Under the pieces are notes generated by a model. That model was not told where the DNA came from. It did not search any database and was given only the letters and a program-made list of their open reading frames with translations. Positions 12,018 to 31,563 of a stretch of DNA of 44,269 nucleotides are shown piece by piece. A program made the translations under genes and the position numbers. Each line of letters starts with the position of its first letter. Position 1 is the first letter of the stretch. Source of the DNA: a virus; IMG/VR virus record IMGVR_UViG_3300029305_001256; one strand, written 5' to 3'.

Positions 12018-12027
12018 GGGGGGGGGG
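12018..12027 (+). repeat. G10 homopolymer, intergenic, acting as the Shine-Dalgarno region of CDS 12037
   Basis: The sequence reads TAA GA GGGGGGGGGG TAAAGTGAT ATG. Confidence 0.9.
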
Positions 12028-12036
12028 TAAAGTGAT

Positions 12037-12261
12037 ATGATTACAAAACTCAAAGAGGGTAACACCTATGTTGTTGACAATGAGGGCATTTATACGGAGT
12101 TTATCTGCGATGAGCCCGCCGATGTGCTGAACTTGCCAACGGGTGCAAATTCCTCCAGCCTTGACAGGCCACGCCCCGGTAGCACGGCGGTTATCACCAG
12201 CACCCAAGAGGTGTATGTGCTTACCAATCAGCGTGTATGGGTTGCACTTGTAGAGGGGTGA
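12037..12261 (+). CDS. Hypothetical protein (tail-fibre module)
   Basis: A 74-aa ORF preceded by the G-rich SD. Confidence 0.5.
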   Translation: MITKLKEGNTYVVDNEGIYTEFICDEPADVLNLPTGANSSSLDRPRPGSTAVITSTQEVYVLTNQRVWVALVEG

Positions 12262-12265
12262 TAAT

Positions 12266-12451
12266 ATGGCAAATATGGCTGTGTTAAAGCCCTTACCCCA
12301 AGACAATAACCCCATAACCCTTTTGCTTATGCGTAAAGGTAAAAGCAAGGTTATTGAGCCGCCTGCCGGCTCCGTATTCCTTGCTGACGAAAACAACAGG
12401 CTCCTCCGTGATGAACGGGGAGCCTATTTAATTGAAAACAAGGAGGACTAA
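12266..12451 (+). CDS. Hypothetical protein (tail-fibre module)
   Basis: A 61-aa ORF, tightly packed between its neighbours. Confidence 0.45.
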   Translation: MANMAVLKPLPQDNNPITLLLMRKGKSKVIEPPAGSVFLADENNRLLRDERGAYLIENKED

Positions 12452-12457
12452 ACCACT

Positions 12458-14233
12458 ATGGCAAATACTGTTTCGGTTGTTGAAAAACCCATCCCCGAAA
12501 AAGTAAGCAAAGAGGCTTATGTGCTCGGCATCCAGGATGATGGATCCGGCAAGCAAGCCCTTTACCGCTTGCCCCTTAATGAGGTGCGTGCAAACGGTGC
12601 AAATGACCTGTTTATTATCCCGGCTCTTATTGAGCAGTACGGTACCAAGCAGGCATTTACCGTGTTTGTAAACGCTAATGCCGAATATGACAGCCTCACC
12701 AACCTTGCGGATCGTTTCTTTAAGGCTGCGGCCTCGGCGGTTACGCAAACCTATACCTCACAATTTTACCGCTATAACACCAGCAACAGCTCCCTTGGTA
12801 CCAAGATGGCTGACAATGAGGGGCTTGTTTGTACCCCCTCCACCATTGCCACCGCCGGCCAGGATGATTATGCAGACCTCCCGCTTTTCGCTTGCTTTGA
12901 TATTAACTATATCATTGACAGCGTAAGCCTTGAGCCGGTAATTATCGCCATCAAGGATGTTTACGGGCCCTTTACCTCCACGCCCACCGAGAGCTTGGTT
13001 GGCGTGCTCCAAATGACGGGCTGGGTACGCCGCAGCGGTGATGATACCACCAAAACCGTTGAATACAGAGCACAGCAGGCGGCAGGCTTTAAGCCTTTGC
13101 CGGAGGGTGTAAAGGTTGACGGCAGCGTGCGTGGTTATGTTATCCACGCCAAGTATGCCGCAGGCTTGGATGCAAACGGTTTGCTTTCCAGCATTTCCGG
13201 CGTACAGCCTGCGACCTCAAGATCCGGATCCCAGGGCTCAAAGAGTATCAGCCACGATGGGCAAATTGCTTTGTGGCGTGCCCGTGGCAACCAGTACAGC
13301 GGTGCCTCCCTTTGCGACCACGCATTTTTGCAGCTTATGCTTGAGATCAAATATGCTGACCTCGGCAACGCTGTTAAAATGGCCGGCTGTCGCAGTTACA
13401 GCACCAGCTATGCCGCCGCTGTTTCCGAGAACGGTGTAAACCGCATTGTGCTTACTGCATCGCAGGGTGCTTATTATGTGGTTGGCTCCCGTGTTTCTAT
13501 CGGTACCAGCAATGACCGTGCAAAAGCAACCTGCTACGATGTGCACGATATTGCCACCGTTGCCAGCATTGAGGATGTAACCATTAACGGCACCGCCTAC
13601 AAGGCCGTTTATTTAGCCACAGAGGATATTTTCGATGTGGTGGCGGGTACAACCTACATCACCCCGCAGCCGTGGGCTACGGGCAGCACAGACAGCGTAC
13701 CGGGCAATGACGGCAGCCCTACCAACAACACCAACGGCAAAGAGCCCTTTAAGATCCAGGGCATTGAGGTTATGCTTGGTATGTACGAGGTGCCCGGCGG
13801 CGTTAAGCTGAATGAGGACACGGAAAAGTACACCGTATATGCAAACCGTTTGGCCGCTGATATTGTGGCAGGCGGTACCATCAACGATGGTTATTTTATC
13901 CTTGGAACTATCCCCAAAGAGGAGGCGGCAGCGTGGAAATACAACGCCGAGCTCAACTGGGATGCCAATGACCAGGATGCTTATATGCTTGGCCAGCAGT
14001 TTGAGGGCGGCTCCACAACGGGCTACCGATCCGCTACATACCGAGATGCGGCAGCAACTACCGGTTGGCGTGAGTGGCGGGCTTTCGGTGGTTTGGTCAA
14101 TGGCGGGTACAGCGGTTTGGCTTGCGCTAGTTTGTACGGTGGCCTCGGCAATGCTGACTGGCACATCGGCGCCCGCTCGTCTGGCACCTCCGGTAATAGG
14201 GGTGAATATACGGCGGCGCAGGCCGCCGTATAG
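12458..14233 (+). CDS. DGR target protein: tail-fibre/receptor-binding-module protein carrying the variable repeat in its C-terminus
   Basis: A 591-aa ORF. Its last ~50 codons (...WRAFGGLVNGGYSGLACASLYGGLGNADWHIGARSSG...) align to the template repeat, with differences at template adenines. Confidence 0.85.
   Translation: MANTVSVVEKPIPEKVSKEAYVLGIQDDGSGKQALYRLPLNEVRANGANDLFIIPALIEQYGTKQAFTVFVNANAEYDSLTNLADRFFKAAASAVTQTYTSQFYRYNTSNSSLGTKMADNEGLVCTPSTIATAGQDDYADLPLFACFDINYIIDSVSLEPVIIAIKDVYGPFTSTPTESLVGVLQMTGWVRRSGDDTTKTVEYRAQQAAGFKPLPEGVKVDGSVRGYVIHAKYAAGLDANGLLSSISGVQPATSRSGSQGSKSISHDGQIALWRARGNQYSGASLCDHAFLQLMLEIKYADLGNAVKMAGCRSYSTSYAAAVSENGVNRIVLTASQGAYYVVGSRVSIGTSNDRAKATCYDVHDIATVASIEDVTINGTAYKAVYLATEDIFDVVAGTTYITPQPWATGSTDSVPGNDGSPTNNTNGKEPFKIQGIEVMLGMYEVPGGVKLNEDTEKYTVYANRLAADIVAGGTINDGYFILGTIPKEEAAAWKYNAELNWDANDQDAYMLGQQFEGGSTTGYRSATYRDAAATTGWREWRAFGGLVNGGYSGLACASLYGGLGNADWHIGARSSGTSGNRGEYTAAQAAV
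14074..14184 (+). repeat. DGR variable repeat (VR)
   Basis: Aligns without gaps over 111 nt to 14295..14405. There are 16 mismatches, 13 of them opposite TR adenines. Confidence 0.9.
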
Positions 14234-14250
14234 AGGGGCGTTAGCCCCTC
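14211..14250 (+). other. Two adjacent GC-rich hairpins, each with a 7-bp stem and 4-nt loop, just 3' of the VR
   Basis: CGGCGGC-GCAG-GCCGCCG at 14211..14228 and GAGGGGC-GTTA-GCCCCTC at 14233..14250. Both stems are perfect. The second starts on the last base of the stop codon. Confidence 0.7.
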
Positions 14251-14294
14251 ATAAAGGGATGTACTGTGGACCCTCGTGCCCTTTGTCCTATGTT

Positions 14295-14405
14295 GTGGCA
14301 GGCTTTCGGTAATTTGAACAATGGCGGCAACAGCGGTTTGGCTTACGCTAATTTGAACAATGGCCTCGGCAATGCTAACTGGAACATCGGCGCCCGCTTT
14401 TCTGG
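14295..14405 (+). repeat. DGR template repeat (TR)
   Basis: An adenine-rich copy of the VR with 24 A, mostly in AAC/AAT codons. The 72-aa ORF 14266..14484 over it is the shadow of this repeat. Confidence 0.9.
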
Positions 14406-14492
14406 TAGATATTTATTTTTATTACGCAGTACATTTATGGCGGCTCTGCTGCCATACGGGGTAACACCTGCCTTGGGCTCATAACCCAAAAA

Positions 14493-15716
14493 TTGAGATA
14501 TAACCGGCACCGTAAGGAGGGGCGGTATTACAAGGCCGCCCCTGGGGTTAGTAGAGAAAACCGAAAGCCCTTGTGCTCACCAGACGATATAAAGGAGGGG
14601 TTACTTATCAAGACCTATTGCAAAAATATTGATATAACAAACCCCGATGTGATAGAGCCCTGGGTGCACCTCTGCATCACGGATCCCAAAAAGCGAAACC
14701 GCCCAGGTTTTAAGCGTTTGGTTGCCAAATACGGAGGTGCCCACGGCATTGCGGTTGAGATCACGGAGCGAATAAAAGCCCGTGATCTTGCTTTGCCGCC
14801 TATACATTATCGTAACCGGGTTGATAAGAGCAGCGGAAAAGAACGCAGGCTCGGTATTGAGAGTGCTATGCAGCAATGTATGAATTATGTTGCAGTTTAC
14901 GCACTTATGCCTATGTTAAAGGCAAAGGTTGGCCAATTCCAATGTGCAAGCATACCGGAGCGTGGCCAAATTTACGGTAAAAAGGTGCTTGAGAAATGGA
15001 TCCGCAAAGATCCCAAAGGCACTAAATATTATGACAAAATGGATGTGCGGCATTGCTTTGAAAGCATCAAGTGCCGCACGGTCCGCAAACTGCTTGAGCG
15101 TGATATACACAAAAACCCTACACTTATATGGTTTGTATGTGCTTTGGTTGACACATACGAGGATGGGCTTTCAATAGGCAGCTTTTTGAGCCAATGGCTG
15201 TGTAACTATGTTATGAGCTACGCATACCACTACGCCACGGAGCAGCTTTACAAAGAACGCCGGGGCAAGCGTAAAAACCTTGTTACCCACCTGCTTATGT
15301 TTATGGATGATGTGTATATGACCTCCGGCTCAAAGCGTGATCTTAAAATGGCAGGCAAGCAATTTGAGGAGTACCTGCTTACCCGCTTGGGGCTTTGCAT
15401 AAAGCCTAACCACCACATTAAGGAAACGGCAAAGGAGCCACCGGATATGATGGGCTTTGTTGTTTCCAAAGAGTGCACCACCATAAGAGCCCGCACCTTT
15501 GTACGGGCACGCAGGGCACTTATAAGGGCCTGGAGGCGTATGCAGGCTGGGCTGTGTATTTACATACAAAACGCCCGCCGCATTGTTTCATACCGTGGCT
15601 ATTTTAAGCACACCAACTCCCAAAAGGTGGCTGCGACCTTGCACCTCAAAGAGGTGTTTAGAACTGCACGCAAAACAATAAGTAATTTTTCAAAGAGAGG
15701 AATGGTACCAGTATGA
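14493..15716 (+). CDS. DGR reverse transcriptase (5' boundary uncertain)
   Basis: RT motifs are present: ...GKERRLGIESAMQQC..., DVRHCFESI, the DGR-type LSIGSFLSQ (I/LGxxxSQ), and FMDDVY (YxDD class). A strong AAGGAGG at 14592..14598 suggests the real start lies near 14600 rather than at TTG 14493. Confidence 0.85.
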   Translation: MRYNRHRKEGRYYKAAPGVSRENRKPLCSPDDIKEGLLIKTYCKNIDITNPDVIEPWVHLCITDPKKRNRPGFKRLVAKYGGAHGIAVEITERIKARDLALPPIHYRNRVDKSSGKERRLGIESAMQQCMNYVAVYALMPMLKAKVGQFQCASIPERGQIYGKKVLEKWIRKDPKGTKYYDKMDVRHCFESIKCRTVRKLLERDIHKNPTLIWFVCALVDTYEDGLSIGSFLSQWLCNYVMSYAYHYATEQLYKERRGKRKNLVTHLLMFMDDVYMTSGSKRDLKMAGKQFEEYLLTRLGLCIKPNHHIKETAKEPPDMMGFVVSKECTTIRARTFVRARRALIRAWRRMQAGLCIYIQNARRIVSYRGYFKHTNSQKVAATLHLKEVFRTARKTISNFSKRGMVPV

Positions 15717-16081
15717 TTACAAAAGCGTATTTTACAGAACGCCCGGAAAGTATCAAGTTTATGCCTTTGCCCTCCGGGGATGCAGATCTCTGGTTGCGTA
15801 AAAACATTGCCGAGATTACGGATCCGGAAACCAACGAGGTAAGCTATGAGGCCGATGAGGCATATATGCGTACCGATGCCACCAAGGCTGAGATTGAGGC
15901 AGATTTTGAGGGCTGGTTTGAAACCGCCAGCGAATGGCAGCCCACACAGCCCACACCTGCACCCGGCACCGAGGATGAGCGTATTACCGCCCTTGAGGGC
16001 GAGGTGGAAACCTTAAAGGTTGAAAACGCCGCACTCAAGGAGGAATTGCAGGCAACAAAAATTATTTTGGGGGTGGACTAA
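15713..16081 (+). CDS. Acidic coiled-coil protein of the tail-fibre/lysis junction (XkdW-position hypothetical)
   Basis: A 122-aa ORF with an ATGA overlap to the RT stop. The C-terminus is coiled-coil (LEGEVETLKVENAALKEELQ). Confidence 0.5.
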   Translation: MITKAYFTERPESIKFMPLPSGDADLWLRKNIAEITDPETNEVSYEADEAYMRTDATKAEIEADFEGWFETASEWQPTQPTPAPGTEDERITALEGEVETLKVENAALKEELQATKIILGVD

Positions 16082-16492: not shown

Positions 16493-16495
16493 GCC

Positions 16496-16837: not shown

Positions 16838-16853
16838 TAAGGAGGTTTTCCCT

Positions 16854-17798: not shown

Positions 17799-17814
17799 AT
17801 AGGAGGATCCTAAA

Positions 17815-18186: not shown

Positions 18187-18205
18187 AATGTTTTTTGTGT
18201 AAAAT

Positions 18206-18224
18206 TGTTAGAAACATTCTAACA
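18206..18224. other. Perfect palindrome TGTTAGAA-ACA-TTCTAACA (candidate attP core or regulator site)
   Basis: 8-bp arms with a 3-bp spacer. The same octamer TTCTAACA recurs in tandem at 18295..18310, with a 7/8 inverted copy near 18241. Confidence 0.45.
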
Positions 18225-18476: not shown

Positions 18477-18478
18477 CG

Positions 18479-20074
18479 TTATTCTGTTGGTATGGTAATT
18501 GCAAACACATTACGCCACACCACAACCGTAAAATTATTACGGCTGTGGTGTTCGGCTGTGTGCGTTATGGTGGAACATAACGCACGGCAAACGAACTCTG
18601 CACCCTCGGTGCCGAGGCTGTCAACCTCGGCCAAGGTAATGGTGCGATTATCCCCAGAATAGTTAAAGGTAAGCGTTATTTTATCATCATACACAAATAT
18701 GGCATTTATGAAAGTATCAATAAGCCGCTTTTGAAATTCTGGGCTTTTTACATCGCCGTTTCTAAAATCGGTAAGGAAAAAGAGCACATAATCACGGGTG
18801 ATCTGCCAGGACCGTACCAGCTCCAGGTGTGAAAGCTCGGCCTCGATTTCCGCACGCTGTGCATCCAACTCATCCAACCGCTTTTTGGTGGCCTCGTTGA
18901 ATATACCCGCCTCAATGGCTTTTATAATATTGCCGGTGGCTTTTTCCACCTCGGCCAGCTTACGCTTTAAGGCCTCGGCAAGATCGTTATCCTGGTTTTG
19001 TGCTTGGTAGCACTCATATACAGCATCGGCAATGAACTCCAGCAGCGCATCATCCTTGAGCAGATCCATAACGGCGTTTATAACAATGCCCTCGATCCAC
19101 TCCTGCCGCACAGCTTTTTTATGGCAGGTACGCTCCCGGCGTTTTTTGGTGCACACATAATAATTGTGCTTGGCACCGGTTTTGCTGGTACCGCTTTCCC
19201 CGATCATACCGGAGCCACAATGCCCACAGAAAAGTTTATCAGTAAGAATATAATCGGCACGGCTCCAGGTGTGTGCCGGTGCCCTTTTGTTTACTTTTAG
19301 CATTTCCTGCACCTTTGCAAATGTTTCCACATCAATTATGGCCGGCACGCCGCCCTCGATCCTTACATCATCCTTATAAGTATATACACCGATATACTTT
19401 TCATTTTTAAGCATTGAGTGCAGGCTGTTTTTGGTAAATTTACCGCCCCGGAGGGTACGGAGCCCCCGGTTGTTGAGCTCGGTAACAATTTCCGTAACGG
19501 TGCTGCCTTTGGCGTACATATCAAACACCAAGCGGACCGTTGGCGCCGTTTCCGGATCTATTACAAATTTTTTAGTGGCGGGATCCGTTTTGTACCCCAG
19601 AGGCCTGTTGCCCCCGGTGCTTTGGCATTTCTCTGCACTTGCCCGTTGGCCACGCAGGATGTTTTGGGAAAGCTGGAGGCTGTAATATTCAGCCATACCC
19701 TCAAGCACGCTTTCCAAAATAACGCCCTCCGGGCTGTCTGGGATGCTTTCAGCAACATACACCACTTTTACACCGTTCTTTTTACAGCGGTATTTATTGA
19801 AAGCGATCTCCTCACGGTTACGCCCAAAGCGATCTATTTTCCACAATATTATTGTATCAAACTGCTTTTTGGCCGTATCTTTGAGCATTTCCTGGAATTG
19901 CTCACGGTTATCATTGCGGCCCGTCATTGCTCTGTCGCAGTATTCTTTTACGATGGTAAGCCCGTGTGCTGCCGCATATTTGTATGCCTCGGCAAGCTGC
20001 CCCTCAATACTTTGCTCACCTTGCCTGTGGCTGGAGTACCGGGCATAAACCACCGCTATACGCTTTTTGCTCAC
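18479..20074 (-). CDS. Large serine recombinase (integrase)
   Basis: A 531-aa ORF. It has a resolvase-type N-terminus (RIAVVYARYSSHRQGEQSIEGQ), a recombinase domain, a zinc-ribbon (CGHCG...C..C) and a coiled-coil C-terminus. The GTG start overlaps the upstream stop. Confidence 0.9.
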   Translation of the reverse strand: MSKKRIAVVYARYSSHRQGEQSIEGQLAEAYKYAAAHGLTIVKEYCDRAMTGRNDNREQFQEMLKDTAKKQFDTIILWKIDRFGRNREEIAFNKYRCKKNGVKVVYVAESIPDSPEGVILESVLEGMAEYYSLQLSQNILRGQRASAEKCQSTGGNRPLGYKTDPATKKFVIDPETAPTVRLVFDMYAKGSTVTEIVTELNNRGLRTLRGGKFTKNSLHSMLKNEKYIGVYTYKDDVRIEGGVPAIIDVETFAKVQEMLKVNKRAPAHTWSRADYILTDKLFCGHCGSGMIGESGTSKTGAKHNYYVCTKKRRERTCHKKAVRQEWIEGIVINAVMDLLKDDALLEFIADAVYECYQAQNQDNDLAEALKRKLAEVEKATGNIIKAIEAGIFNEATKKRLDELDAQRAEIEAELSHLELVRSWQITRDYVLFFLTDFRNGDVKSPEFQKRLIDTFINAIFVYDDKITLTFNYSGDNRTITLAEVDSLGTEGAEFVCRALCSTITHTAEHHSRNNFTVVVWRNVFAITIPTE

Positions 20075-22388: not shown

Positions 22389-22571
22389 ATGGCCTATTAC
22401 CACACCTGCCCAGAGTGCGGGGCCAATTTGGATCCCTGCGAAAAATGCGATTGTCAAACAATAAAAAACAATATAACCAAGGAGGCTAACGAAAATGTTA
22501 GAAATGAAGATCACCATTGCCGCCCCGGATCTGGCGGCAGCCATCAACAACCTTGCCGTGGCACTTGCTAA
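22389..22571 (+). CDS. Small zinc-ribbon-like protein
   Basis: ATG immediately follows the upstream stop (TAA-ATG). The N-terminus reads MAYYHTCPECGANLDPCEKCDC. The 3' part overlaps the next gene, so the true extent is uncertain. Confidence 0.4.
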   Translation: MAYYHTCPECGANLDPCEKCDCQTIKNNITKEANENVRNEDHHCRPGSGGSHQQPCRGTC

Positions 22572-23013
22572 CGGCAACACCGTACCCGCTGAAAAGCCCG
22601 CAAAGGCTGAAAAGCAGACCGAGGCAAAGGTTGCCGCACAGCAGGCACAGGCACCCGTAAACCCTATGCAGGCAACTGGTGCACCTTTGAGTGCGACACC
22701 TGCCCAGACCGTGGCACCTGTGGCTAATGTTCCCGTTGCACCCGCTGTGGTACAGCAGGCGGCACCCGCCGTGGCACCGGTAGCACAGGCACCTATTGCC
22801 CAGGCTCCCGTTGCATCCGCAGTACCCACCGGAGCACCTACCTACACCCTGGAAATGATTGCAAGAGCCGGCACGGCACTTGTAGATGCTGGCAAGATGG
22901 ATGCACTTTGTGGCCTGCTTGCCAAGTACGGGGTTGAGGCTCTTACTGCATTGGATCCCGCACAGTACGGCAACTTTGCAAACGATTTGAGAGCCCTCGG
23001 CGCACAGATTTAA
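22495..23013 (+). CDS. Ala/Pro/Gln-rich early protein (hypothetical)
   Basis: AAGGAGG RBS. The 172-aa product has a low-complexity centre and a structured C-terminus. Confidence 0.6.
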   Translation: MLEMKITIAAPDLAAAINNLAVALANGNTVPAEKPAKAEKQTEAKVAAQQAQAPVNPMQATGAPLSATPAQTVAPVANVPVAPAVVQQAAPAVAPVAQAPIAQAPVASAVPTGAPTYTLEMIARAGTALVDAGKMDALCGLLAKYGVEALTALDPAQYGNFANDLRALGAQI

Positions 23014-23022
23014 GGGGGGGGG
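23014..23022 (+). repeat. G9 homopolymer, intergenic, acting as the Shine-Dalgarno region of CDS 23030
   Basis: The sequence reads TAA GGGGGGGGG TAAGATT ATG. Confidence 0.9.
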
Positions 23023-23029
23023 TAAGATT

Positions 23030-24235
23030 ATGCCGACACCGGAAAAACACGCTCTGCTGTCTGCATCCTCTGCCTCACGCTGGCTGCGTTGCACAGCCGC
23101 CCCTCGATTTGAGGAGCAATTCCCGGAAAAAACCTCGGAATACGCAGAGGAGGGCCGACTTGCCCACGCTATTTGTGAGCTCAAGGTAATTAAGAAATTT
23201 ACCACACAGCTTACACCCCGTATGTATAGCACCCGCATTAACAAGCTCAAAAAGGATCCGCTGTACACCGATGAAATGGATAAAACATCGGATCTGTATG
23301 TTGAGCACCTTACCGAAAAGGCTATGACCTATAACAGCACGCCCAGCGTTGCCGTTGAGGTGCAGGTTGATTTTGCCGAATATGTACCGGAGGGCTTTGG
23401 TACCTGCGATTGCATTATGATCGGCGGCGATACCCTCAACATTACCGACTATAAGCACGGCAAAGGCGTGCCTGTATCGGCAGAGGGCAACGCACAAATG
23501 AGGCTTTATGCCCTCGGCGCTTTGAAACGCTACGCACCTATTTACGGCAACACCATTAAAAAAGTGTGTATGACCATTGACCAGCCCCGCATCCAGGATG
23601 AGCCCAGCACCGAAACCATAACCGTTGAGGAGCTGCGTGCTTGGGGTGAAAGCATCAAGCCTGCTGCCGCCAAGGCATATATGGGGCTCGGTGAATTTTG
23701 CCCCGGTGAGCATTGCCGTTTTTGCAGAGGCAAGGCACAATGCAAAGCCCGTGCTGCCATTAACACAGCCCTTGAGGAGTTTAAGGACTGCGTACCGCAG
23801 AACGGTGAAAAGCCGCCCCTCTTTGGCCAGGGAGTGCTTACGGATGAGGAGATCGGTGATCTGCTTGTAAGGGGTAAGGAGCTCGTGGCCTGGTATAAGG
23901 ACCTTGAGGAGTACGCACTTAACGCCCTGCTTAACGGCGGTACCATCCCCGGATGGAAAGCGGTAGCAGGCAGGAGCAACCGTACATTTACGGACACGGA
24001 TGCAGCCGTTGCGGCTGTTATCGCTGCCGGGTACGATGAGGCCCTTGTTTATGAGCGTAAGCCCAAAACCCTTACCGAGCTTGAGAAACTTATGGGCAAG
24101 GCTGAATTTGCAGCCAAATTGGGTGCCTATGTGGTTAAGCCTTTGGGCAAGCCCACCCTTGCACCTATGACCGACAAACGAGAGCCTTACAGCCCTGCCG
24201 CCGCCGATTTTGCGGAGGTGGCAAACAATGGATAA
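23030..24235 (+). CDS. PD-(D/E)XK / Cas4-like recombination nuclease (DUF2800-type)
   Basis: A 401-aa ORF with nuclease-core-like DCIMIGGDTLNITDYKHGKG and a C-terminal Cys cluster (FCPGEHCRFCRGKAQC). It is a typical first gene of this replication-module type. Confidence 0.7.
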   Translation: MPTPEKHALLSASSASRWLRCTAAPRFEEQFPEKTSEYAEEGRLAHAICELKVIKKFTTQLTPRMYSTRINKLKKDPLYTDEMDKTSDLYVEHLTEKAMTYNSTPSVAVEVQVDFAEYVPEGFGTCDCIMIGGDTLNITDYKHGKGVPVSAEGNAQMRLYALGALKRYAPIYGNTIKKVCMTIDQPRIQDEPSTETITVEELRAWGESIKPAAAKAYMGLGEFCPGEHCRFCRGKAQCKARAAINTALEEFKDCVPQNGEKPPLFGQGVLTDEEIGDLLVRGKELVAWYKDLEEYALNALLNGGTIPGWKAVAGRSNRTFTDTDAAVAAVIAAGYDEALVYERKPKTLTELEKLMGKAEFAAKLGAYVVKPLGKPTLAPMTDKREPYSPAAADFAEVANNG

Positions 24236-24617
24236 CACACAGCTTACCGTGCTTGTAGAGCGTTGTGTTATGCAGATCAACCCGGATCCGTTTTTCGATA
24301 ACAGCACCCTGGCAAACATCCGTAAATTATTCCGTTATGTTTTCCAGGAGCCGGACCGTAACACGGAAACCATTGCAGCCCTCGGCGGGTACCTGCCCGC
24401 CAAGGTTGCAGAAACAAAAGCAGCTTGGGGCGATGCAAGCGTTGCCTATACCAACGGCTATGTAGATTTAAGTTATAGGCAGTATGGTATGCCAAAAAGT
24501 GTGATAAACAGCACCGTGGCCGCCAACAAAAAGCTGCTTGCCGCTGTAAAGCGTGCAAAAGCCAAGCACGAAAAATATGTAAAAATTTTGGCTGCCTTTG
24601 AGGCCGCCGCAAAATAA
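24228..24617 (+). CDS. Hypothetical early protein
   Basis: ATG 24228 overlaps the upstream stop region. The product is 129 aa. Confidence 0.55.
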   Translation: MDNTQLTVLVERCVMQINPDPFFDNSTLANIRKLFRYVFQEPDRNTETIAALGGYLPAKVAETKAAWGDASVAYTNGYVDLSYRQYGMPKSVINSTVAANKKLLAAVKRAKAKHEKYVKILAAFEAAAK

Positions 24618-24635
24618 CCAAGGAGGCATAAAATT

Positions 24636-24951
24636 ATGCGTTTCAATGAGAACATCCCCCCCCCGTATGAGTGAGGCCCACAAAAGGGCCGAGGCTGAAA
24701 GCGCCGCCTGTGATATGTTGCTTGAGCTTATGCTTGAGAGCGATATGCCGGAGGAGCGTAAGGTTGGCCTGCACATTATGAAAGCAGCAAGAAACCTGCA
24801 CGAGGCTATCAGCAATATTGTTGGTGAGTATGCGGATCCCACCAAAGAGGTACCGTATGAAACCGCCAAGCAGGTTGCTGAATACCTCGGCCTGGTACAC
24901 ACAGGCATTATGCAATTTATGGAAACCCAAAACAACCAATGTACTGAATGA
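24636..24951 (+). pseudogene. Early gene interrupted at a C9 tract (frameshifted, or phase-variable OFF state)
   Basis: AGGAGG at 24621..24626 is followed by ATG 24636, which gives MRFNENIPPPYE-stop. The long ORF (..RMSEAHKRAEAES..., ending 24951) is one base out of frame. C8 or C11 would join the two. Confidence 0.6.
24656..24664 (+). repeat. C9 homopolymer at the frame break of gene 24636..24951
   Basis: Read directly. It lies in codons 8-10 after the RBS-served ATG. Confidence 0.9.
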
Positions 24952-24977
24952 AATTTATATCAAAGGAGATCAAGAGT

Positions 24978-25718
24978 ATGTATCAAAACATTGCAACCAA
25001 AGTATTAACCGGTGAGGTACGCCTTTCCTATGTCAACCTCATCACACCCAGAGCCGCACAGCAGGGCGGTGAGCCTAAATACAGCGTAACGCTGCTTATT
25101 CCCAAGAGCGATAACGCCACCAAGATGGATATTGACAACTCCATCCGTGCGGCGTATGAGGAGGGTGTAAGCAAAAAGTGGGGCGGTGCACATCCCCAGC
25201 CCAAGGTTATTGTGCACGATGGCGATGGTTTACGCCCCTCCGGCTTGCCTTTCGGTGAGGAGTGCAAAGGCTGCTGGGTAATTACCGCATCCACCAAGAA
25301 CAAGCCCCAGGTGGTTGGCATTGATAATGTCAACTGTGAGCTTGCCCCCAACGATATTTACAGCGGTATGTATGCCCGTGTAACCCTTAACTTTTTTGCC
25401 TACGATACGGCAGGCAGCAAGGGCGTTGGCTGTGGCCTCGGTAATGTTATGAAAACCAGGGATGGTGAGCCCCTTTCCGGTGGTGCATCCGCTGCCAGCG
25501 ATTTTGCAGACTTTAACACAATGCCTGCGGCGGCTCCTGCATACGGCACCGCACCCGCTTATGGTGCCCAGCCCAATTATGCGGCACCCGCTGCACCTGC
25601 TTACCAGGCACCTGTTGCTCCCGCTTATCCCCAGGCGGCACCCCAGCAGTACGCACAGCCCGCAGCTCCCCAGCAGGGCGGCGTAAGGATCAACCCCATT
25701 ACCGGACAGCCGATGTAA
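24978..25718 (+). CDS. ssDNA-binding-type protein (DUF2815-like)
   Basis: AAAGGAG RBS 9 nt before ATG 24978. The N-terminus reads MYQNIATKVLTGEVRLSYVNL and the tail is Pro/Ala/Gln/Tyr-rich. ATG 24948 (ATGA overlap) is an alternative start. Confidence 0.65.
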   Translation: MYQNIATKVLTGEVRLSYVNLITPRAAQQGGEPKYSVTLLIPKSDNATKMDIDNSIRAAYEEGVSKKWGGAHPQPKVIVHDGDGLRPSGLPFGEECKGCWVITASTKNKPQVVGIDNVNCELAPNDIYSGMYARVTLNFFAYDTAGSKGVGCGLGNVMKTRDGEPLSGGASAASDFADFNTMPAAAPAYGTAPAYGAQPNYAAPAAPAYQAPVAPAYPQAAPQQYAQPAAPQQGGVRINPITGQPM

Positions 25719-25737
25719 ACAAAGGAGGTAAAGAGCT

Positions 25738-27720
25738 ATGCACCACTTGAGCATTGACCTTGAAACATACTCAAGCGTGCCGATTGGAAAAGCCGGCGCC
25801 CAAAAGTACATTGCAAGCCCCGACTTTGAGATCCTGCTCTTTGCCTATTCCTTGGATGGCTCACCGGTTGTATGCGTGGACTTTGCCCAGGGTGAAATGC
25901 TACCGCAGGAAATTGCAAACGCATTGACCTCCCCGGACTACATAAAGCACGCATACAATGCTCCCTTTGAGTGGGGCTGCCTTTCCAAATATGTGGGCAG
26001 GCAGCTCCCACCGGAGCAATGGCGTTGCACAATGTTCCACGGCCTTTACGCTGGCTATACGGCGGGCCTGGAGGCCACAGGGCGGGCGTTAGGCCTTGCA
26101 GAGGATAAACGCAAGCTCAATACAGGTAAAGCCCTTATACGCTATTTCTGCGTGCCCTGTGCCCCCTCAAAGGCAAACGGTATGCGTACACGAAACTACC
26201 CCCACCATAACCCGGAGCGTTGGCAGTTATTCAAAGAGTATTGCTGCCAGGATGTTGTTACGGAAATGGAAATTGAGAGGCGGCTTTCAGCAATACCCGT
26301 ACCGGACTTTGTGCAAAAGGAATGGGAAACGGATCTCATTATCAACAGCCGAGGCGTGGCGGTTGATATGGAAATGGTTGAGGGTGCCCTGGAGCTCGGT
26401 GCTACGGTCCGCAACAGCCTTATGACAGAGGCAATGCAAATATCCGGGCTGAATAACCCCAACAGCGTAAAGCAGCTTGCTGCTTGGCTTGAGGAGGAAA
26501 CCGGTGAGGAGGTTGCCGCCCTGCGTAAGGACACCGTGGCAAAGATGCTTGCCCGTGATGATAACAGCCCCCAGGTACAGCGTATGCTTGAGATCCGGCA
26601 GGAGCTTGGCAAGACCAGTACCAAAAAATATGATGCCATTGAGGTGGCTGTGTGCCCGGATGGGCGTGTGCGTGGGCTTTTGCAGTTTTACGGAGCCAAC
26701 CGCACCGGCAGATGGGCAGGCCGTTTGGTGCAGGTGCAAAACCTGCCCCGCACCTATACGGAGCCCCTGGAGCTTGCCCGTGAATTGGTAAAGGGCCGAA
26801 ACCTTAACGCCCTCAAGGCCATTTACGGCAGCATCCCGGACACATTAAGCCAACTTATACGCACAGCCTTTATAGCACCGCCTGGGCACATACTCATTGA
26901 TGCTGACTTTTCAGCCATTGAGGCCCGTGTTATATCGTGGCTTGCCGGTGAGGAGTGGCGCCTTGAGGTTTTCCGCACCCACGGCAAAATATATGAGGCA
27001 TCTGCATCCCAAATGTTTGGCGTGCCCCTTGAGCTTATCAAAAAGGGCAACCCCGAATATGCCCTCCGACAAAAGGGCAAGGTTGCAGAGCTTGCACTCG
27101 GCTACCAAGGCAGTACCGGTGCACTTATCAATATGGGTGCTCTTGATATGGGCATCCCGGAGGAGGATCTGCCGGATATTGTTACCCGTTGGCGTGATGC
27201 CAACCGGCGCATAAGGGATCTGTGGTACAAAATGGATGCCGCCGCCGTGCAGATTATCACCCAGGGTGGAGCCGTTGGCGTAAACAATGTGGTTATTGCC
27301 CGTGAGTTTAACTACGAGCAAGGCACCGATTGTATGACCATAACGCTACCCTCCGGGCGTAAGCTCTATTACATTGAGCCCCAAATTGGCCAAAACCAAT
27401 GGGGCAGCCCCTCAATATCGTATATGGGTATGGACCAGACCACAAAGAAATGGAAACGCATAGAAACCTACGGCGGCAAGCTTGTGGAGAACTGTGTGCA
27501 AGCCATTGCCCGTGATTGTCTGGCACAGGCCATTGAGCACCTTGAGGCTGCCGGCCTGCCTGTTATATTCCACATACACGATGAGGTTGTTATTGATTGC
27601 CCGCCCAATGCCGCCACCCTGGAGGATGTGGTTAAGATCATTGCACAGCCCATACCCTGGGCTCCGGATCTGCCGCTGGGTGCGGATGGCTGGGTTGGCC
27701 AATTCTTTAAGAAAGATTAA
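25738..27720 (+). CDS. Family-A DNA polymerase with 3'-5' exonuclease domain
   Basis: A 660-aa ORF. The exonuclease motif is LSIDLETYS. The polymerase motifs are DFSAIEARV, QKGKVAELALGYQG and HIHDEVV. Confidence 0.85.
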   Translation: MHHLSIDLETYSSVPIGKAGAQKYIASPDFEILLFAYSLDGSPVVCVDFAQGEMLPQEIANALTSPDYIKHAYNAPFEWGCLSKYVGRQLPPEQWRCTMFHGLYAGYTAGLEATGRALGLAEDKRKLNTGKALIRYFCVPCAPSKANGMRTRNYPHHNPERWQLFKEYCCQDVVTEMEIERRLSAIPVPDFVQKEWETDLIINSRGVAVDMEMVEGALELGATVRNSLMTEAMQISGLNNPNSVKQLAAWLEEETGEEVAALRKDTVAKMLARDDNSPQVQRMLEIRQELGKTSTKKYDAIEVAVCPDGRVRGLLQFYGANRTGRWAGRLVQVQNLPRTYTEPLELARELVKGRNLNALKAIYGSIPDTLSQLIRTAFIAPPGHILIDADFSAIEARVISWLAGEEWRLEVFRTHGKIYEASASQMFGVPLELIKKGNPEYALRQKGKVAELALGYQGSTGALINMGALDMGIPEEDLPDIVTRWRDANRRIRDLWYKMDAAAVQIITQGGAVGVNNVVIAREFNYEQGTDCMTITLPSGRKLYYIEPQIGQNQWGSPSISYMGMDQTTKKWKRIETYGGKLVENCVQAIARDCLAQAIEHLEAAGLPVIFHIHDEVVIDCPPNAATLEDVVKIIAQPIPWAPDLPLGADGWVGQFFKKD

Positions 27721-27733
27721 AGGAGGATCGGCA

Positions 27734-28527
27734 ATGCAGTATATGGGCGGCAAAAGCCGTATTGCCCGCAGCATTGCTAACATAATCAATGAGGTACCAA
27801 GGTGGAAAATCAAGAATAGCAACACCGTTGGCACAGATCCTCAACTCTGCGGGGGGGGGCTTGCTTTGTTAGTCTTTTCTGCGGTAGCTGCTCCGTTGAG
27901 AGCAAAGTAACCGGTTATGACCGCATCATCCTAAACGATAAGCACGAGTATTTGATCTCAATGTTAAAGGGTGTACAGCAAGGTTATGAATTGCCGGAAA
28001 CCATAACGGAGGATCAGTACCAATATATACGAGCCAACAAGGATGCAGATCCCGTGCTCACAGGCTTTGTGGGTTTTGGGTGCAGCTTTGGTGGCAAGTG
28101 GTTTGGCGGTTACGCCAGGAATAAGGGCGGCACCAATTACGCAGCCCAAAGCAAAAGATCATTGCTTAAAGATATGGCCACGCTCGGCGGTGCAGAGTTT
28201 ATTTGTGGCGATTATCGCAAAGTACCGATACCGCCCGGAGCCGTTGTGTATGCGGATCCACCGTATGCAGACACCACGGGCTATAACGGTGAGAAATTTG
28301 ACAGCAAAGAGTTTTGGCGGGCAATGCGGTTGCTTGCTGATACCGGGCACACCGTTTACATAAGTGAGCAGACCGCCCCGCCAGACTTTGTATGCGTGTG
28401 GGAAAAGCCCTTTACCCGCACCCTCGACAGAAACAAGGGCAACCAATTTAAGGTAACAGAAAAGCTGTTTACCTATGTATCACCGCTTTACCAAGGAGGC
28501 GTACAAATTGATACCCTTACCAAATAA
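27734..28527 (+). pseudogene. Dam-like (D12-class) N6-adenine DNA methyltransferase split by a G9 tract
   Basis: The N-terminus MQYMGGKSRIA... is in frame 2 up to the tract. The continuation ...ACFVSLFCGSCSVESKV...VVYADPPY... is in frame 1, and G10 would join them. Confidence 0.75.
27851..27859 (+). repeat. G9 homopolymer at the frame break of the Dam-like gene
   Basis: Read directly. The context is CTGC-G9-CTTGC. Confidence 0.9.
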
Positions 28528-29065
28528 AAAATACAGCGTTATATACGCAGATCCACCCTGGGCTTATCAGCAAGGTGGCAGAGGTGCCGCCAAGCATCAT
28601 TACGATACGATGAGCACCGAGGCATTATGCAATATGCCCGTGCGGGATATTTGCACCGATGATGCCGTGCTCTTTATGTGGGCCACTTTCCCGAATTTGC
28701 CGGAGGCATTAAAGGTGATGGAGGCCTGGGGCTTTACCTACAAAACGGCAGCGTTTGTGTGGGTGAAACAAAACAAAAAGGCACCCACCTTGTTTATGGG
28801 TGGCGGCTCCTACACCAGGGCAAATGCGGAGGTTTGCCTGCTCGGTGTAAGCAAGAATACCAAGGCAAAAAGGTTTGTGGCATCACACAGCGTGCGGCAG
28901 ATCATTATAACACCGGTACGCCAGCACTCCCAAAAGCCCGCAGAGGCACGGGATCGCATCCGTGAACTCACGGGGGGGGATCACTCGTACATAGAGCTTT
29001 TTGCCCGAAATACCACACCCGGCTGGGATGTGTGGGGAAACGAGGTAAACAAATATGAAAACTAA
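28508..29065 (+). CDS. MT-A70-family N6-adenine DNA methyltransferase
   Basis: AAGGAGG lies 8 nt before the in-frame TTG 28508. The DPPW motif is present (YSVIYADPPWAYQ) and the family-typical C-terminus reads HSQKPAEARDRIREL. It contains an in-frame G8 tract. Confidence 0.8.
   Translation: MIPLPNKKYSVIYADPPWAYQQGGRGAAKHHYDTMSTEALCNMPVRDICTDDAVLFMWATFPNLPEALKVMEAWGFTYKTAAFVWVKQNKKAPTLFMGGGSYTRANAEVCLLGVSKNTKAKRFVASHSVRQIIITPVRQHSQKPAEARDRIRELTGGDHSYIELFARNTTPGWDVWGNEVNKYEN
28972..28979 (+). repeat. G8 homopolymer, in frame, inside the MT-A70 gene (encodes T-G-G-D)
   Basis: Read directly. The context is TCAC-G8-ATC. Confidence 0.9.
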
Positions 29066-29555
29066 AATATACATTGCCGGCAAGATTACCGGCGATCCGG
29101 AATATAAAGCAAAGTTTGATGCTGCGGCAGCAGAGTACAAAAAAAAGGGTTACACCGTGCTTAACCCCTCTTGGATGCCCCAGGGTATGCAGCCTGCCGA
29201 TTATATGCGTATTTGCTTTGCAATGATCGACACAGCGGATGTGGTTGCTTTTCTGCCTGGGTTTAGCAAGAGCCCCGGTGCAAGGCTGGAGGCAGAATAC
29301 TGTTTTTATACCGATAAAAGCACCATTATGCCGGATGGTGAAAGTTTGGAAACACCGAACTGCTCACAAAAAGAATTGACGGCATTAAAAGCGGTGTACT
29401 ACTTGGCCGAGAGAAACCCACGCCTGCGTATGGGTGGCACTTGGGTTGAGGATGTACACAATATGGAAACCTGCCAGCGGATCCCGTTTGTTGAGGCAAT
29501 GCGGCTTGTTGGTAATATGCTTTATTGCTCCGATGATGAGGAGGCAAGACCGTGA
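29055..29555 (+). CDS. DUF4406 / nucleoside-deoxyribosyltransferase-like protein
   Basis: The N-terminus MKTKIYIAGKITGDPEYKAKF... and the later ...VVAFLPGFSKSPGARLEAEY... are typical of that fold family. Confidence 0.6.
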   Translation: MKTKIYIAGKITGDPEYKAKFDAAAAEYKKKGYTVLNPSWMPQGMQPADYMRICFAMIDTADVVAFLPGFSKSPGARLEAEYCFYTDKSTIMPDGESLETPNCSQKELTALKAVYYLAERNPRLRMGGTWVEDVHNMETCQRIPFVEAMRLVGNMLYCSDDEEARP

Positions 29556-30153
29556 AACACTACGGCGATATAACAAAAATAAACGGAGCTGCTGTGGAGC
29601 CCGTCAATGTGATTATTGGCGGCAGCCCTTGCCAGGATCTTTCCGTTGCAGGTAAGCAAGCAGGCTTACAGGGTGAACGGTCCGGGCTCTTTATGGAGCA
29701 ACTGCGTGTGATAAAAGAAATGAGGAGGGCTGACAATGCCAGAGGTAGAACAGGAAAAGACACCCGCCCAAGGTATATGGTGTGGGAAAATGTGCCCGGA
29801 GCTTTCAGCTCCACAGGAGGAGCCGACTTTGCAGCCGTGCTCCAAGAAACCGCAAAAGTGGCCTGCGAACAAGCCCCCGCTGTTCCTATCCCTAAAAACG
29901 GATGGCCTCCAGCCGGATGCCTTACCGATGTGGGAGGACAATGGAGCATTGCGTGGAGAGTACTTGATGCACAGTTTTGGGGCGTGCCCCAAAGACGAAA
30001 ACGCATCGCACTTGTCGCAGATTTTGGAGGCCTCACCGCACCCGAAATACTCTTTGAGCGCCAAGGCGTGCCTGGGTATATTAAACCGTGCGGAACGGAG
30101 GGGCAAGGTGCTCCCGGAAATATTGAAACAAGCACTAATACAGCAAGCCCAAC

Positions 30154-30161
30154 GGGGGGGG
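30154..30161 (+). repeat. G8 homopolymer inside the C5-MTase locus
   Basis: The context is AAC-G8-CTTATTG. It is in frame for ORF 29552..30502, and it is also where the overlapping ORF 29736..30239 begins to run out. Confidence 0.9.
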
Positions 30162-30303
30162 CTTATTGCATACAAGGTAACTGCATCGACAGAGCAGACA
30201 CCGCAGGATGCAACGGCAAAGGATGGACCGAGGGAGTAAGCTACACCCTAAACACCATTGACCGCCCCGCTGTGCTCCCTTTTGTGCCAGCCCCTCAAGT
30301 AAC

Positions 30304-30310
30304 GGGGGGG
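30304..30310 (+). repeat. G7 homopolymer inside the C5-MTase locus
   Basis: The context is AAC-G7-CTTACATTG. Frame 1 is open from here into the next recognisable segment. Confidence 0.9.
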
Positions 30311-30618
30311 CTTACATTGACAGCTCACCCTTTCGATCCGGCACAGGTAACTGCCCCGTTACATCGCAACCCAATGACGAACACAGAGAAATGCCACACG
30401 CTGCACAGCCTGGATGCCCCGGCGATTGTATCATATTTGAGCCGGGATCCTGCACCCGTGTTGGCGGGCATATCTGGCAAGATGGAAAAACCCCGGCGTT
30501 AAGAGCCGATGCAGGCGATAACCGCCCCGCCATAGCCCTTGAGCACCACCCTAACGATAGCAGGGTGAAAATAGCCGAGGATGGAATTGTACAAACCCTC
30601 AATGCTCGTATGGGCACC

Positions 30619-30627
30619 GGGGGGGGG
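30619..30627 (+). repeat. G9 homopolymer inside the C5-MTase locus (encodes GGG of ARMGTGGGNVPLV)
   Basis: Read directly. It is in frame for ORF 30391..30666. Confidence 0.9.
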
Positions 30628-30826
30628 AATGTTCCACTCGTTATGTGCTCTACCAAAAGGCCATAGGCAGCCTATGTGCGAGGGATGCCAAAGGGATTGG
30701 CAACCAATATGTGCAGGAGGGCAAGTGCCTAATTATGGAGGTAACAAAATGATAATGTTTGAAAACTACCAATTTGCTAATTGGCGCCCCGGATGCGGAA
30801 CGCTAAAAGCAAGCGGTGGCGATTAC

Positions 30827-30835
30827 GGGGGGGGG
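30827..30835 (+). repeat. G9 homopolymer at a frame break of the C5-MTase locus
   Basis: ...TLKASGGDYGGG in frame 2 continues as SENLIVYEYWNGE... in frame 0. G8 would join them. Confidence 0.9.
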
Positions 30836-30908
30836 CTCGGAAAACTTGATTGTGTATGAATATTGGAACGGTGAGCCTGTGGTTGACACACTCACCGCAC
30901 GAAACGCT

Positions 30909-30917
30909 GGGGGGGGG
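30909..30917 (+). repeat. G9 homopolymer inside the C5-MTase locus (encodes GGG of ARNAGGGQRM)
   Basis: Read directly. It is in frame for ORF 30816..31352. Confidence 0.9.
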
Positions 30918-31344
30918 CAACGGATGCCGGATAAACAAAATTTTAACTGCGTTGTAGGAGCAGAGCAAAACCCTACTGAAACAAATTATATTGTACGCCG
31001 CCTTACACCGCTTGAATGTGAACGCCTGCAAGGTTTTCCGGATGGCTGGACCGATATAGGCGAATACACCGACAGCAAAGGTAAAGTACATAAAGAGTGT
31101 GCAGATAGTGCACGCTACAAGGCACTTGGCAACAGCATTGCCATACCGCCGTGGACTTATGTATTACAGCGGCTTTCTGTCTGCTGTGGTACGGAGGCAA
31201 CGATGGCCAGCTTATTTGATGGCATCGGCGGTTTTCCTCTTATCTGGGAACGCATTAACGGCAAAGGCTCTTGCCTTTGGGCAAGTGAAATTGAGGACTT
31301 TCCCATTGCCGTTACAAAATACCATTTTCCGGAGGAGGTACCCG

Positions 31345-31554
31345 ATGAGTAAAATACCTTACAGAAATAGTGAGGGCTACGCAGATCCCACGGCATACGC
31401 CGCCCTGGAGCCTATTGCCCAGGAGGAGGCAGCCCTTGAAAGCAAAGTAAACTTTTTAATAAAGGTGCTCAAATTCATTGCCAACGAGGCTGGGTTTGAT
31501 GTAACCAACCGCATTGAATTATGCGACAGAAAAACCGGCAGGGTTTTTAAGTAA
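31345..31554 (+). CDS. Small hypothetical protein upstream of the primase-helicase
   Basis: ATG 31345 overlaps the end of the MTase locus. The 69-aa product begins MSKIPYRNSEGYADPTAYAALEPI... Confidence 0.55.
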   Translation: MSKIPYRNSEGYADPTAYAALEPIAQEEAALESKVNFLIKVLKFIANEAGFDVTNRIELCDRKTGRVFK

Positions 31555-31555
31555 G

Positions 31556-31563
31556 CCCCCCCC
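31556..31563 (+). repeat. C8 homopolymer, intergenic
   Basis: The sequence reads TAA G CCCCCCCC GT GGGGTGGGC. The tract can pair with the following G-rich run. Confidence 0.9.

Follow-up and report, generated by a model that had tools for sequence, protein, structure and literature searches.

Variable-length poly-G tracts in the methyltransferase cassette of a temperate Clostridia phage as candidate contingency loci

The window analysed here is the complete 44,269-nt stretch of the IMG/VR virus record IMGVR_UViG_3300029305_001256, a temperate phage of gut Oscillospiraceae/Clostridia, about 44.3 kb long and of the contractile-tail type. A cassette of DNA methyltransferase (methylase) genes lies downstream of the phage DNA polymerase (PolA), between the polymerase and VapE, and consists of Dam, MT-A70, a DUF4406 protein and a C5-cytosine methylase (Dcm). 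Seven of the 11 long G/C runs of the window lie in these methylase genes. The long G/C runs are genuine, hypermutable homopolymers. The comparison of related sequences suggests, with a probability that we put at about 78%, that they are slippage-driven contingency loci, which would randomise the set of methylases made by the phage; the probable benefit would be a bet-hedge against restriction.

The same reading had been proposed in an earlier note made from this DNA alone. It is supported by orthologous tracts in many short-read assemblies, by length variation between genomes that differ by zero substitutions, by frame shifts in both directions and by purifying selection on the genes concerned. 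The slippable repeats lie in coding sequences or expression signals, and their lengths differ between near-identical genomes. Alleles in frame and out of frame, with the gene otherwise intact, were found for Dam and MT-A70; for Dcm in the window lineage, a change of tract lengths would suffice to give an intact frame.

Homopolymer tracts and their length variation

A scripted scan of the window, whose G+C content is 50.0%, recovered the 11 G or C runs of at least 7 nt listed in the earlier note, with the same positions and lengths (7–10 nt; Table 1). Eight of these runs lie in open reading frames (ORFs), seven in methylase genes and one in a leader ORF; two are at Shine–Dalgarno (SD) sites, and one is intergenic. 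The suggestion that the tracts act as frame switches can therefore apply to the eight in ORFs and not to those at 12018, 23014 and 31556, which are intergenic, the first two being SD elements.

The run lengths were bimodal. For G, there were six runs of 5 nt, none of 6, one of 7, two of 8, five of 9 and one of 10; for C, there were 24 runs of 5 nt, none of 6 or 7, and one each of 8 and 9. Up to length 5, the probability that a G run was extended was approximately 0.18 per base. Simulations under an order-0 Markov null gave 0.95 runs of at least 8 nt and 0.24 of at least 9 nt; the corresponding order-3 values were 0.59 and 0.12. The observed numbers were 10 and 7. The ten runs of at least 8 nt counted in the earlier note were thus all present, and its expectation of about 1.3 was of the right order of magnitude. 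Two further nulls were discarded as unsuitable: the order-1 model takes no account of the genuine fall in P(G|GG), whereas the order-5 model picks up the tracts themselves. The clustering was also confirmed, with 8 of the 11 tracts within 8.4% of the window (binomial p = 3e-7). The related statement that head, packaging and tail genes are free of tracts was correct in that no such gene is hit, but the tract at 12018 lies inside the tail module.

Table 1. Coordinates of the tracts, genes and ORFs of the window, with counterparts in related records
Feature	Coordinates	Strand	Remarks
G10 tract	12018-12027	+	intergenic, SD position
G9 tract	23014-23022	+	intergenic, SD position
C9 tract	24656-24664	+	in leader ORF
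G9 tract	27851-27859	+	Dam gene
G8 tract	28972-28979	+	MT-A70 gene
G8 tract	30154-30161	+	C5 methylase
G7 tract	30304-30310	+	C5 methylase
G9 tract	30619-30627	+	C5 methylase
G9 tract	30827-30835	+	C5 methylase
G9 tract	30909-30917	+	C5 methylase
C8 tract	31556-31563	+	intergenic
Dam gene (D12-class N6-adenine methyltransferase)	27734-28527	+	Pfam assignment
Dam N-terminus A, frame 1	27734-27859	+	MQYMGGKSRIARSIANIINEVPRWKIKNSNTVGTDPQLCGGG; own SD and ATG, runs into tract
Dam N-terminus B, frame 2	27789-27859	+	MRYQGGKSRIATPLAQILNSAGGG; overlaps A out of frame, second GGKSRIA
Dam body, frame 0	27860-28527	+	starts ACFVSLFCGSCSVE (ACFVSLFCGSC...)
MT-A70-family methyltransferase	28475-29065	+	G8 tract at ELTGGD, in frame (ON) in window
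C5-cytosine methyltransferase	29552-31352	+	five poly-G tracts; several ORFs in window
Nested +1-frame ORF, 167 aa	29736-30239	+	inside C5 gene, own SD and ATG
Permuted C5 methylase in L012	14460-16116		related locus
Permuted C5 methylase in L015	13304-15220		related locus
Nested ORF in L081	2839-3258		
Nested ORF in L256	2216-2710		in phage P7 dmt
Tail-fibre gene	10732-12015		annotated, as are baseplate genes
74-aa ORF	12037-12261	+	G10 tract at 12018 is its SD element; just after tail-fibre gene
Serine integrase	18479-20074	-	repressor also annotated
DUF2800/PD-(D/E)XK gene	23030-24235	+	G9 tract at 23014 is its SD element, 7 nt 5' of ATG
Leader ORF, 12 codons	24636-24674	+	strong SD; C9 tract encodes Pro-Pro-Pro
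ORF downstream of leader	ATG 24667, end 24951	+	just before gene of single-stranded-DNA-binding protein (SSB)
69-aa ORF	31345-31554		flanks C8 tract at 31556
VapE-like primase/helicase	31592-33988	+	flanks C8 tract at 31556

Related sequences were collected as 241 polymerase-anchored loci from viral, metagenome and genome collections, and single contigs or loci are denoted below by L and a number. All comparisons were made between consensus assemblies, and the tract lengths given are assembled lengths. Four contigs from four samples (L242–L245) were picked for encoding an MT-A70 protein identical to that of the window. They showed 0 mismatches to the window over 12.5–20.6 kb, and the sole differences were one to three one-base gaps, all in Dcm poly-G tracts and in both directions. 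At the Dcm tracts 30154/30304/30619/30827/30909, the lengths were 8,7,9,9,9 in the window, 9,7,8,9,9 in L242, 8,7,9,8,9 in both L243 and L245, and 8,7,8,8,10 in L244. Five tracts, including the G9 of Dam, had the same length in every near-identical assembly covering them, and the A8/T8 runs were constant. Two further independent assemblies (L258 and L259) reproduced the tract lengths of the window exactly.

The contig L259 begins precisely at tract 30154. The contigs underlying L243 (88,530 nt, 2 × 44,265) and L249 (88,182 nt) are near-exact dimers of the 44.3-kb genome. Both features are typical of assembly graphs at within-sample polymorphisms.

Other related genomes showed the same pattern. 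L014, L015 and L017 share 98% identity over 5.8 kb and differ by approximately 100 substitutions. Their internal indels that could be aligned clearly, four in number, are all located at poly-G tracts, whose lengths range from 7 to 11; the other gaps are confined to the ragged last 30 alignment columns. The comparison with related phages proposed in the earlier note thus revealed tracts at orthologous sites with differing lengths. In 80 pooled viral loci, the long G/C runs had the same bimodal length distribution. Across the 241 loci, tract density was 1.8–5.5 per 10 kb in the 0–4 kb after PolA and 0.0–0.5 per 10 kb, mostly around 0.1–0.2, in most other bins, with a smaller peak (1.3 per 10 kb) approximately 3–4 kb upstream of the PolA end. 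PolA itself had 4 tracts in 480 kb.

A jump between two poly-G tracts 1.8 kb apart was observed in L016 (12962) relative to L015 (12959-14785). Most of two methylase genes is lost in this jump, which represents either a deletion by tract–tract recombination or an assembly collapse.

Methylase genes and their predicted states

The peptide GGKSRIA is the N-terminal cofactor-pocket motif of D12 methylases. The Dam gene of the window has two N-termini with this motif, A and B, which overlap in different frames upstream of the G9 tract, and a single body downstream of it. A tract of 3n + 1 G would join the body to A, a tract of 3n + 2 would join it to B, and a tract of 3n is predicted to be OFF. 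The G9 of the window is OFF, and only fragments are encoded. The earlier note had placed a frame break here, and a change of one base in either direction gives a full Dam. With G10, the A-fused Dam has 264 aa and matches the MethyltransfD12 family from profile position 1 (E = 5e-14, 53 bits); with G8, the B-fused Dam has 245 aa and also matches from profile position 1 (E = 9e-17, 62 bits). Both conceptual forms pass the cut-off of the D12 family PF02086 (22 bits), and the body alone gives E = 1e-4. The DPPY motif is present in Dam (ADPPYADT). The distance from GGK to the FxGxG-type motif (LFCGSC) is approximately 20 residues in B, which is canonical, and approximately 38 in A; the extra linker of A is B read out of frame.

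Both N-termini were found in 53 of 57 loci, and the states among these 53 were A in 19, B in 16 and OFF in 18. Tract lengths at orthologous sites ranged from 7 to 13, the G11 of L163 being B-fused. The GGKSRIA peptide was invariant in both copies in the 57 loci, and its codons were synonymous variants (AGC CGT vs. TCA AGA). Since the peptide is invariant while the codons differ, both copies are maintained by selection at the protein level. We take the duplicated GGKSRIA as the strongest sign that the Dam tract would be a long-standing expressed switch. The Dam body was stop-free over 200–249 codons in 49 of the 51 loci not cut by a contig end, whether ON or OFF, and the protein database contains many Dam proteins of both length classes, grouped in clusters of hundreds of sequences.

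A sister clade (L012, at 12070 and 12148; also L084, L086, L090, L093 and L095) has two poly-G tracts in the 5′ region of Dam, at a distance of approximately 79 nt. The first of these lies inside N-terminus A and is also the SD of N-terminus B, and up to nine phase combinations would be available.

The MT-A70 protein matched the Pfam family PF05063 over the whole profile (positions 1–172 of 172, E = 5e-31). Its tract in relatives was G8 and in frame at 12 loci, and G6, G7 or G9 and out of frame at 13 loci. All 12 tract-less alleles were in frame.

The C5 methylase is circularly permuted. All motifs are present, in the order IV-VI-VIII-TRD-IX-X-I-II, where TRD is the target-recognition domain. 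The protein opens at motif IV (..HYGDITKI..SPCQ) and closes with motif X followed by motifs I and II, which are joined in frame after it (..GNSIAIPP..MASLFDGIGGFPL..). The canonical PF00145 motif order on one polypeptide was not found in the window. More than 20 related loci share this permuted order, among them L064 (7801-9546), in which the gene is a single ORF free of tracts.

Four of the five Dcm tracts of the window (30154, 30304, 30619 and 30909) are locally in frame and 30827 is out of frame; the frame in use after 30619 hits a stop 12 codons later. At 30827, the break seen in the earlier note is repaired by one base, a G8 linking GDYGGG to SENLIV. The tract set (8,8,8,8,9), as compared with (8,7,9,9,9) in the window, gives a single 599-aa ORF with a PF00145 match of E = 5e-34; tract-length changes alone would therefore mend all Dcm frame breaks in the window lineage. 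Across relatives, approximately 30–45% of Dcm sites were in frame, and alleles with at most 6 G were nearly always so. The five Dcm tracts may select among truncated and fused products, as far as the frames indicate.

An ORF in the +1 frame is nested in the C5 gene. Its size is approximately 140–170 aa across records, and its C-terminal helical part (LSQILE..KY.LS.KAC.GIL.RA..RGK.LP..L..AL; ..LSQILE..KYSLSAKACLGILNRAERRGKVLPEILKQAL..) is kept in approximately 100–130 phage records, which include Vibrio, Escherichia (P1/P7 dmt), Streptococcus and gut Clostridia phages. In all of these records, the frame of the conserved part differs from that of the annotated methylase, and the main frame overlapping the nested ORF is an unconserved linker. 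Right after 'ILFERQG', the substitution periodicity moves to the nested frame. The conserved domain of the nested ORF ends at the G8 tract at 30154, and a G9 at this site joins the nested ORF to the target-recognition part of the methylase; P0001 is this G9 fusion form and is 100% identical to the query. The nested ORF had no match among PDB sequences, and no literature on it was found. Its AlphaFold2 model was poor (mean pLDDT 60), and the C-terminal two-helix unit alone was confident. If real, the nested ORF would be a widespread unannotated phage gene.

The ratio of nonsynonymous to synonymous substitution rates (dN/dS), calculated by the Nei–Gojobori method, was 0.063 for the Dam body downstream of its tract, 0.072 for MT-A70, 0.144 for the N part of Dcm, 0.109 for the C part of Dcm downstream of all tracts, and 0.138 for PolA. 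All three methylase genes are under purifying selection. Because this selection is as strong as that on the polymerase, the methylase genes are taken to be in use. Pseudogene decay of the methylases was considered and rejected on the basis of these ratios and of the stop-free Dam bodies in OFF alleles.

The use of glycine codons also differed between the cassette and the rest of the genome. GGG was the first codon at 1 of 75 Gly-Gly positions in non-methylase genes and at 10 of 29 in the methylase block (Fisher p = 7e-6). The earlier note had described Gly-Gly motifs encoded as uninterrupted G runs, and such runs are indeed avoided elsewhere in the genome and enriched in the cassette. Such a contrast would follow if selection removed tracts wherever a frameshift is lethal.

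Proposed mechanism and alternative explanations

We propose that strand slippage during replication adds single bases to the tracts or removes them. The methylase tracts lie at Gly-Gly(-Gly) positions, where a one-base change would put the downstream part into another frame. MT-A70 would be a simple switch, ON at G8 and OFF at out-of-frame lengths. Dam would give isoform A in one phase, isoform B in another and nothing in the third. Dcm, with five tracts in series, would give many truncated, split or full-length products. A phage population would then contain members with differing sets of active methylases and presumably differing DNA-methylation patterns. The most likely benefit would be a bet-hedge between restriction that is blocked by methylation and Type IV-like attack on methylated DNA. 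Variable methylation of the lysogen is a possible secondary effect. Tracts would also last where a length change does little harm, as at the two SDs, the intergenic poly-C and the short leader ORF.

Several observations weigh against this proposal. The ON and OFF states are in-silico states, predicted from reading frames. The ON fractions are near those of neutral tract-length drift (1/3 per frame, 2/3 for Dam). In the window lineage, all near-identical genomes seen have a Dam tract of G9 (OFF), and a protein search found no full-length Dam more than 90% identical to this lineage; Dam may be effectively locked OFF there. In the window, N-terminus B lacks an evident SD of its own. Dcm is never a single ORF in loci with at least two Dcm tracts, and a route to a single Dcm ORF by tract changes alone exists in just 12 of 34 loci. 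One possibility is that Dcm acts as a split enzyme; another is that its switching follows a more complicated scheme than ON/OFF. The mutational process also makes tracts without evident switching function, at SD and intergenic sites.

The candidate explanation that tracts are the sole Dcm lesions everywhere was rejected, as it is true of those 12 of 34 loci and as the L015 clade has a fixed Dcm split into ORFs of 445 aa and 163 aa.

A more ambitious form of the contingency-locus reading is that the cassette evolved as a 'methylome randomiser', in which the three-state Dam, the two-state MT-A70 and the five-tract permuted C5 enzyme would act as serial switches and their combinatorial methylation states would themselves be the bet-hedge, and that tract 30154 would toggle the fusion of the nested gene to the target-recognition half. 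We offer this tentatively and regard it as somewhat doubtful.

It is unlikely, in our view, that the tracts are a neutral by-product without adaptive switching. They would in that case have arisen from G-rich precursors (GGAGG SDs and Gly-Gly codons) and survived only in places that tolerate frameshifts, namely dispensable accessory methylase genes and non-coding spacers. The near-random ON fractions, the lack of an intact Dcm in multi-tract loci and the tracts at SD and intergenic sites, where length has no obvious effect, fit this explanation. Tract-free relatives have plain GGAGG or GGCGGAGG at orthologous sites, and essential genes are without tracts, as it would predict. However, purifying selection on the methylases is as strong as that on the polymerase, also downstream of the tracts. 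The peptide-conserved GGKSRIA in two frames is hard to explain without selection in more than one phase. Many other non-essential small ORFs in the 20-kb loci are nearly tract-free. Clades with polymerase proteins that are approximately 82% identical have retained tracts at the same sites.

Another explanation is that slippage acts during expression, by transcriptional slippage or ribosomal frameshifting, so that each genotype would give a mixture of frames and the DNA length would be of minor importance. Purifying selection on genes that are nominally OFF in most genomes would be accounted for in this way, and downstream of some Dcm tracts none of the three frames has a stop for tens of codons. 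In other systems, runs of at least 9 suffice for slippage of RNA polymerase, but these are A/T runs, and known bacterial transcriptional slippage sites are mostly of this kind. Moreover, length variation is seen directly in the DNA, the tract length is not fixed, and no stimulatory structure was found at the four intergenic and leader tracts that were folded. Expression-level slippage could coexist with switching at the DNA level but would not replace it, and as the main explanation it is quite improbable.

The weakest explanation, raised in the earlier note as homopolymer miscalling, is an error of sequencing or assembly that conceals intact methylase genes; G homopolymers of 8–10 nt are prone to error on several sequencing platforms, a few extreme runs have the look of artefacts (G21 in L101; C15/G14 at the contig end of L004) and the L016 junction could be an assembly collapse, yet we consider this explanation very improbable, given orthologous tracts in well over 100 independent contigs of various projects and assemblers, near-identical assemblies that agree at five tracts and differ at the Dcm tracts alone, two independent assemblies with exactly the lengths of the window, constant A8/T8 runs, length differences in both directions of up to 4–6 bases (7 to 13) between 98%-identical genomes, and N-termini duplicated in two frames, which an artefact would not make.

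Comparison with known systems and other features of the phage

Phage orphan methylases are usually seen as fixed anti-restriction equipment. If the contingency-locus reading is true, one phage genotype would correspond to a cloud of epigenetic types, which would affect host-range prediction as well as methylation-based host linking in metagenomics. The 'frameshifted' methylases of viromes, routinely annotated as pseudogenes or split ORFs, would need another interpretation. Contingency loci would reach the temperate phages of the dominant gut Clostridia, of which almost nothing is cultured, and these phages would provide a natural setting to ask under which conditions methylation is a benefit or a cost to a phage. 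The dual-frame N-termini of Dam would show a gene evolving to stay functional in two of three phases.

The nearest analogue of the Dam arrangement is lic1 of Haemophilus influenzae, which Weiser et al. are said to have described in 1989; it reportedly has a CAAT repeat preceded by start codons in two different frames. In both cases, two of the three repeat phases yield a product. Unlike the short leader peptides of lic1, each Dam N-terminus bears its own GGKSRIA, and one copy, when read out of frame, serves as a linker for the other. C5 methylases can be active with a rearranged motif order, as in M.BssHII and the plant DRM, or as two polypeptides divided in the variable region, as in the two-subunit M.AquI. 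The Dcm described here resembles these enzymes in its non-canonical motif order or in a split at the variable region, as in the 445-aa and 163-aa ORFs of the L015 clade; its permutation point lies between motifs II and IV. No description of a permuted C5 methylase with poly-G tracts and a nested ORF was found in the literature.

Phase-variable methyltransferases, or phasevarions, are known in Haemophilus, Neisseria, Helicobacter and Moraxella (PMC6902483, PMC7383803). They likewise have simple-sequence repeats in methyltransferase genes, with stochastic, reversible ON/OFF switching and alternative methylomes. Phasevarions are chromosomal Type III mod, Type I and Type IIG systems of Gram-negative pathogens with shown regulatory effects, whereas the window has three orphan Type II-like methylases (D12 Dam, MT-A70 and C5) clustered on a phage.

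Contingency loci have also been described in the coliphages T2 and T4, for example in the DNA-modification gene agt of T2 (Gomez, Barrick & Waters, bioRxiv 2025, PMC12633550). These are likewise phage homopolymer tracts, with reversible frameshifts and bet-hedging against host defence. The genome survey in that work took all homopolymers of at least 6 nt as putative loci, and the experiments were performed on cultured coliphages (PMC12633550). Here, by comparison, the G/C tracts are of 7–10 nt, with several in series per gene, and are known from metagenome assemblies only.

In Campylobacter Fletchervirus phages, G7–G11 tracts occur in receptor-binding genes (Sorensen et al. 2021, Cell Rep 35:109214, as cited in PMC12633550 and PMC12823448). 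The likeness is in phage-borne coding tracts of variable length that switch frame and give mixed populations. Those phages are virulent, with an AT-rich proteobacterium as host, whereas here a methylase cassette and SDs are concerned, in a temperate Clostridia phage of 50% G+C. The Bordetella phage BPP-1 is reported to have a poly-G tract in its methylase gene, which according to the citing preprint received no further study (Liu et al. 2004 as cited in PMC12633550). Both are temperate phages with a methylase poly-G tract that also carry a diversity-generating retroelement; the cassette-wide pattern, the population data and the multi-frame design are, judging by that preprint, particular to the present case. 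The author of the earlier note was not aware of phase variation for such a phage methylase cluster. This stands for the Clostridia phage cassette, as no report was found of a multi-tract methylase cassette in gut Clostridia phages or of a duplicated-motif three-state design, but the idea has partial precedents in Campylobacter phages and BPP-1 (PMC12633550).

The tracts outside the methylases are of three kinds. The tract at 12018 stands in the context TAA GA G10 TAAAGTGAT ATG and ends 9 nt upstream of the ATG, at the SD position. In 10 other contigs with an identical 74-aa protein, it was G8, G9 (six contigs), G10, G11 and G15. Sites orthologous to 23014 had GGAGG in L002, L003, L005 and L009, GGAGGG in L013 and G6A in L007; the tract was G8 in L162 and G9 in L163, and was constant in the near-identical genomes covering it.

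The frame break that the earlier note had placed at the poly-C tract 24656 is repaired by one base. A C8 joins the leader (MRFNENIPP) to the downstream ORF (MSEAHKR), as in L215 (MRFNENIPPRMSEARKK). With C9, found in 8 loci, the leader ends at a TGA 5 nt past the downstream ATG, and with C10, an ATGA stop–start overlap would result. The downstream ORF is potentially expressible in all three phases of this tract. At the intergenic tract 31556, relatives have poly-C of C7 to C11 at a matching downstream distance, and the tract was constant in the near-identical genomes covering it. At 31556, 24656, 23014 and 12018, RNA structures (terminator, attenuator or frameshift stimulator) were searched for, and none folded better than shuffled sequences.

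The large terminase and portal genes are annotated in the window, and the replication module consists of DUF2800, an Enc34-type SSB, a family-A polymerase, VapE, VRR-NUC and SNF2. Megablast of 22000–34000 against 50,697 phage records gave two short matches only and no close GenBank phage. The nearest genome records were metagenome-assembled genomes (MAGs) of Oscillospiraceae, Ruminococcus and Faecousia, and many relatives are embedded in contigs of 100–300 kb, that is, as prophages. The description of the phage as Firmicutes-type agrees with an Oscillospiraceae-type Clostridia MAG as host.

The closest relatives, L163 (11984-12202) and L164 (approximately 1780-1996), have an extra insert of approximately 220 bp between the polymerase and Dam, in which a small ORF likewise carries a C8 tract (..VAPPPQDK..). 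The window also contains a probable diversity-generating retroelement (12458-15716). Its variable repeat (14074-14184) lies in the C-terminus of a 591-aa tail protein, its template repeat lies at 14295-14405, and a reverse transcriptase (RVT_1) is found at 14493-15716. Of the 16 mismatches in the variable repeat, 13 are at adenines of the template repeat.

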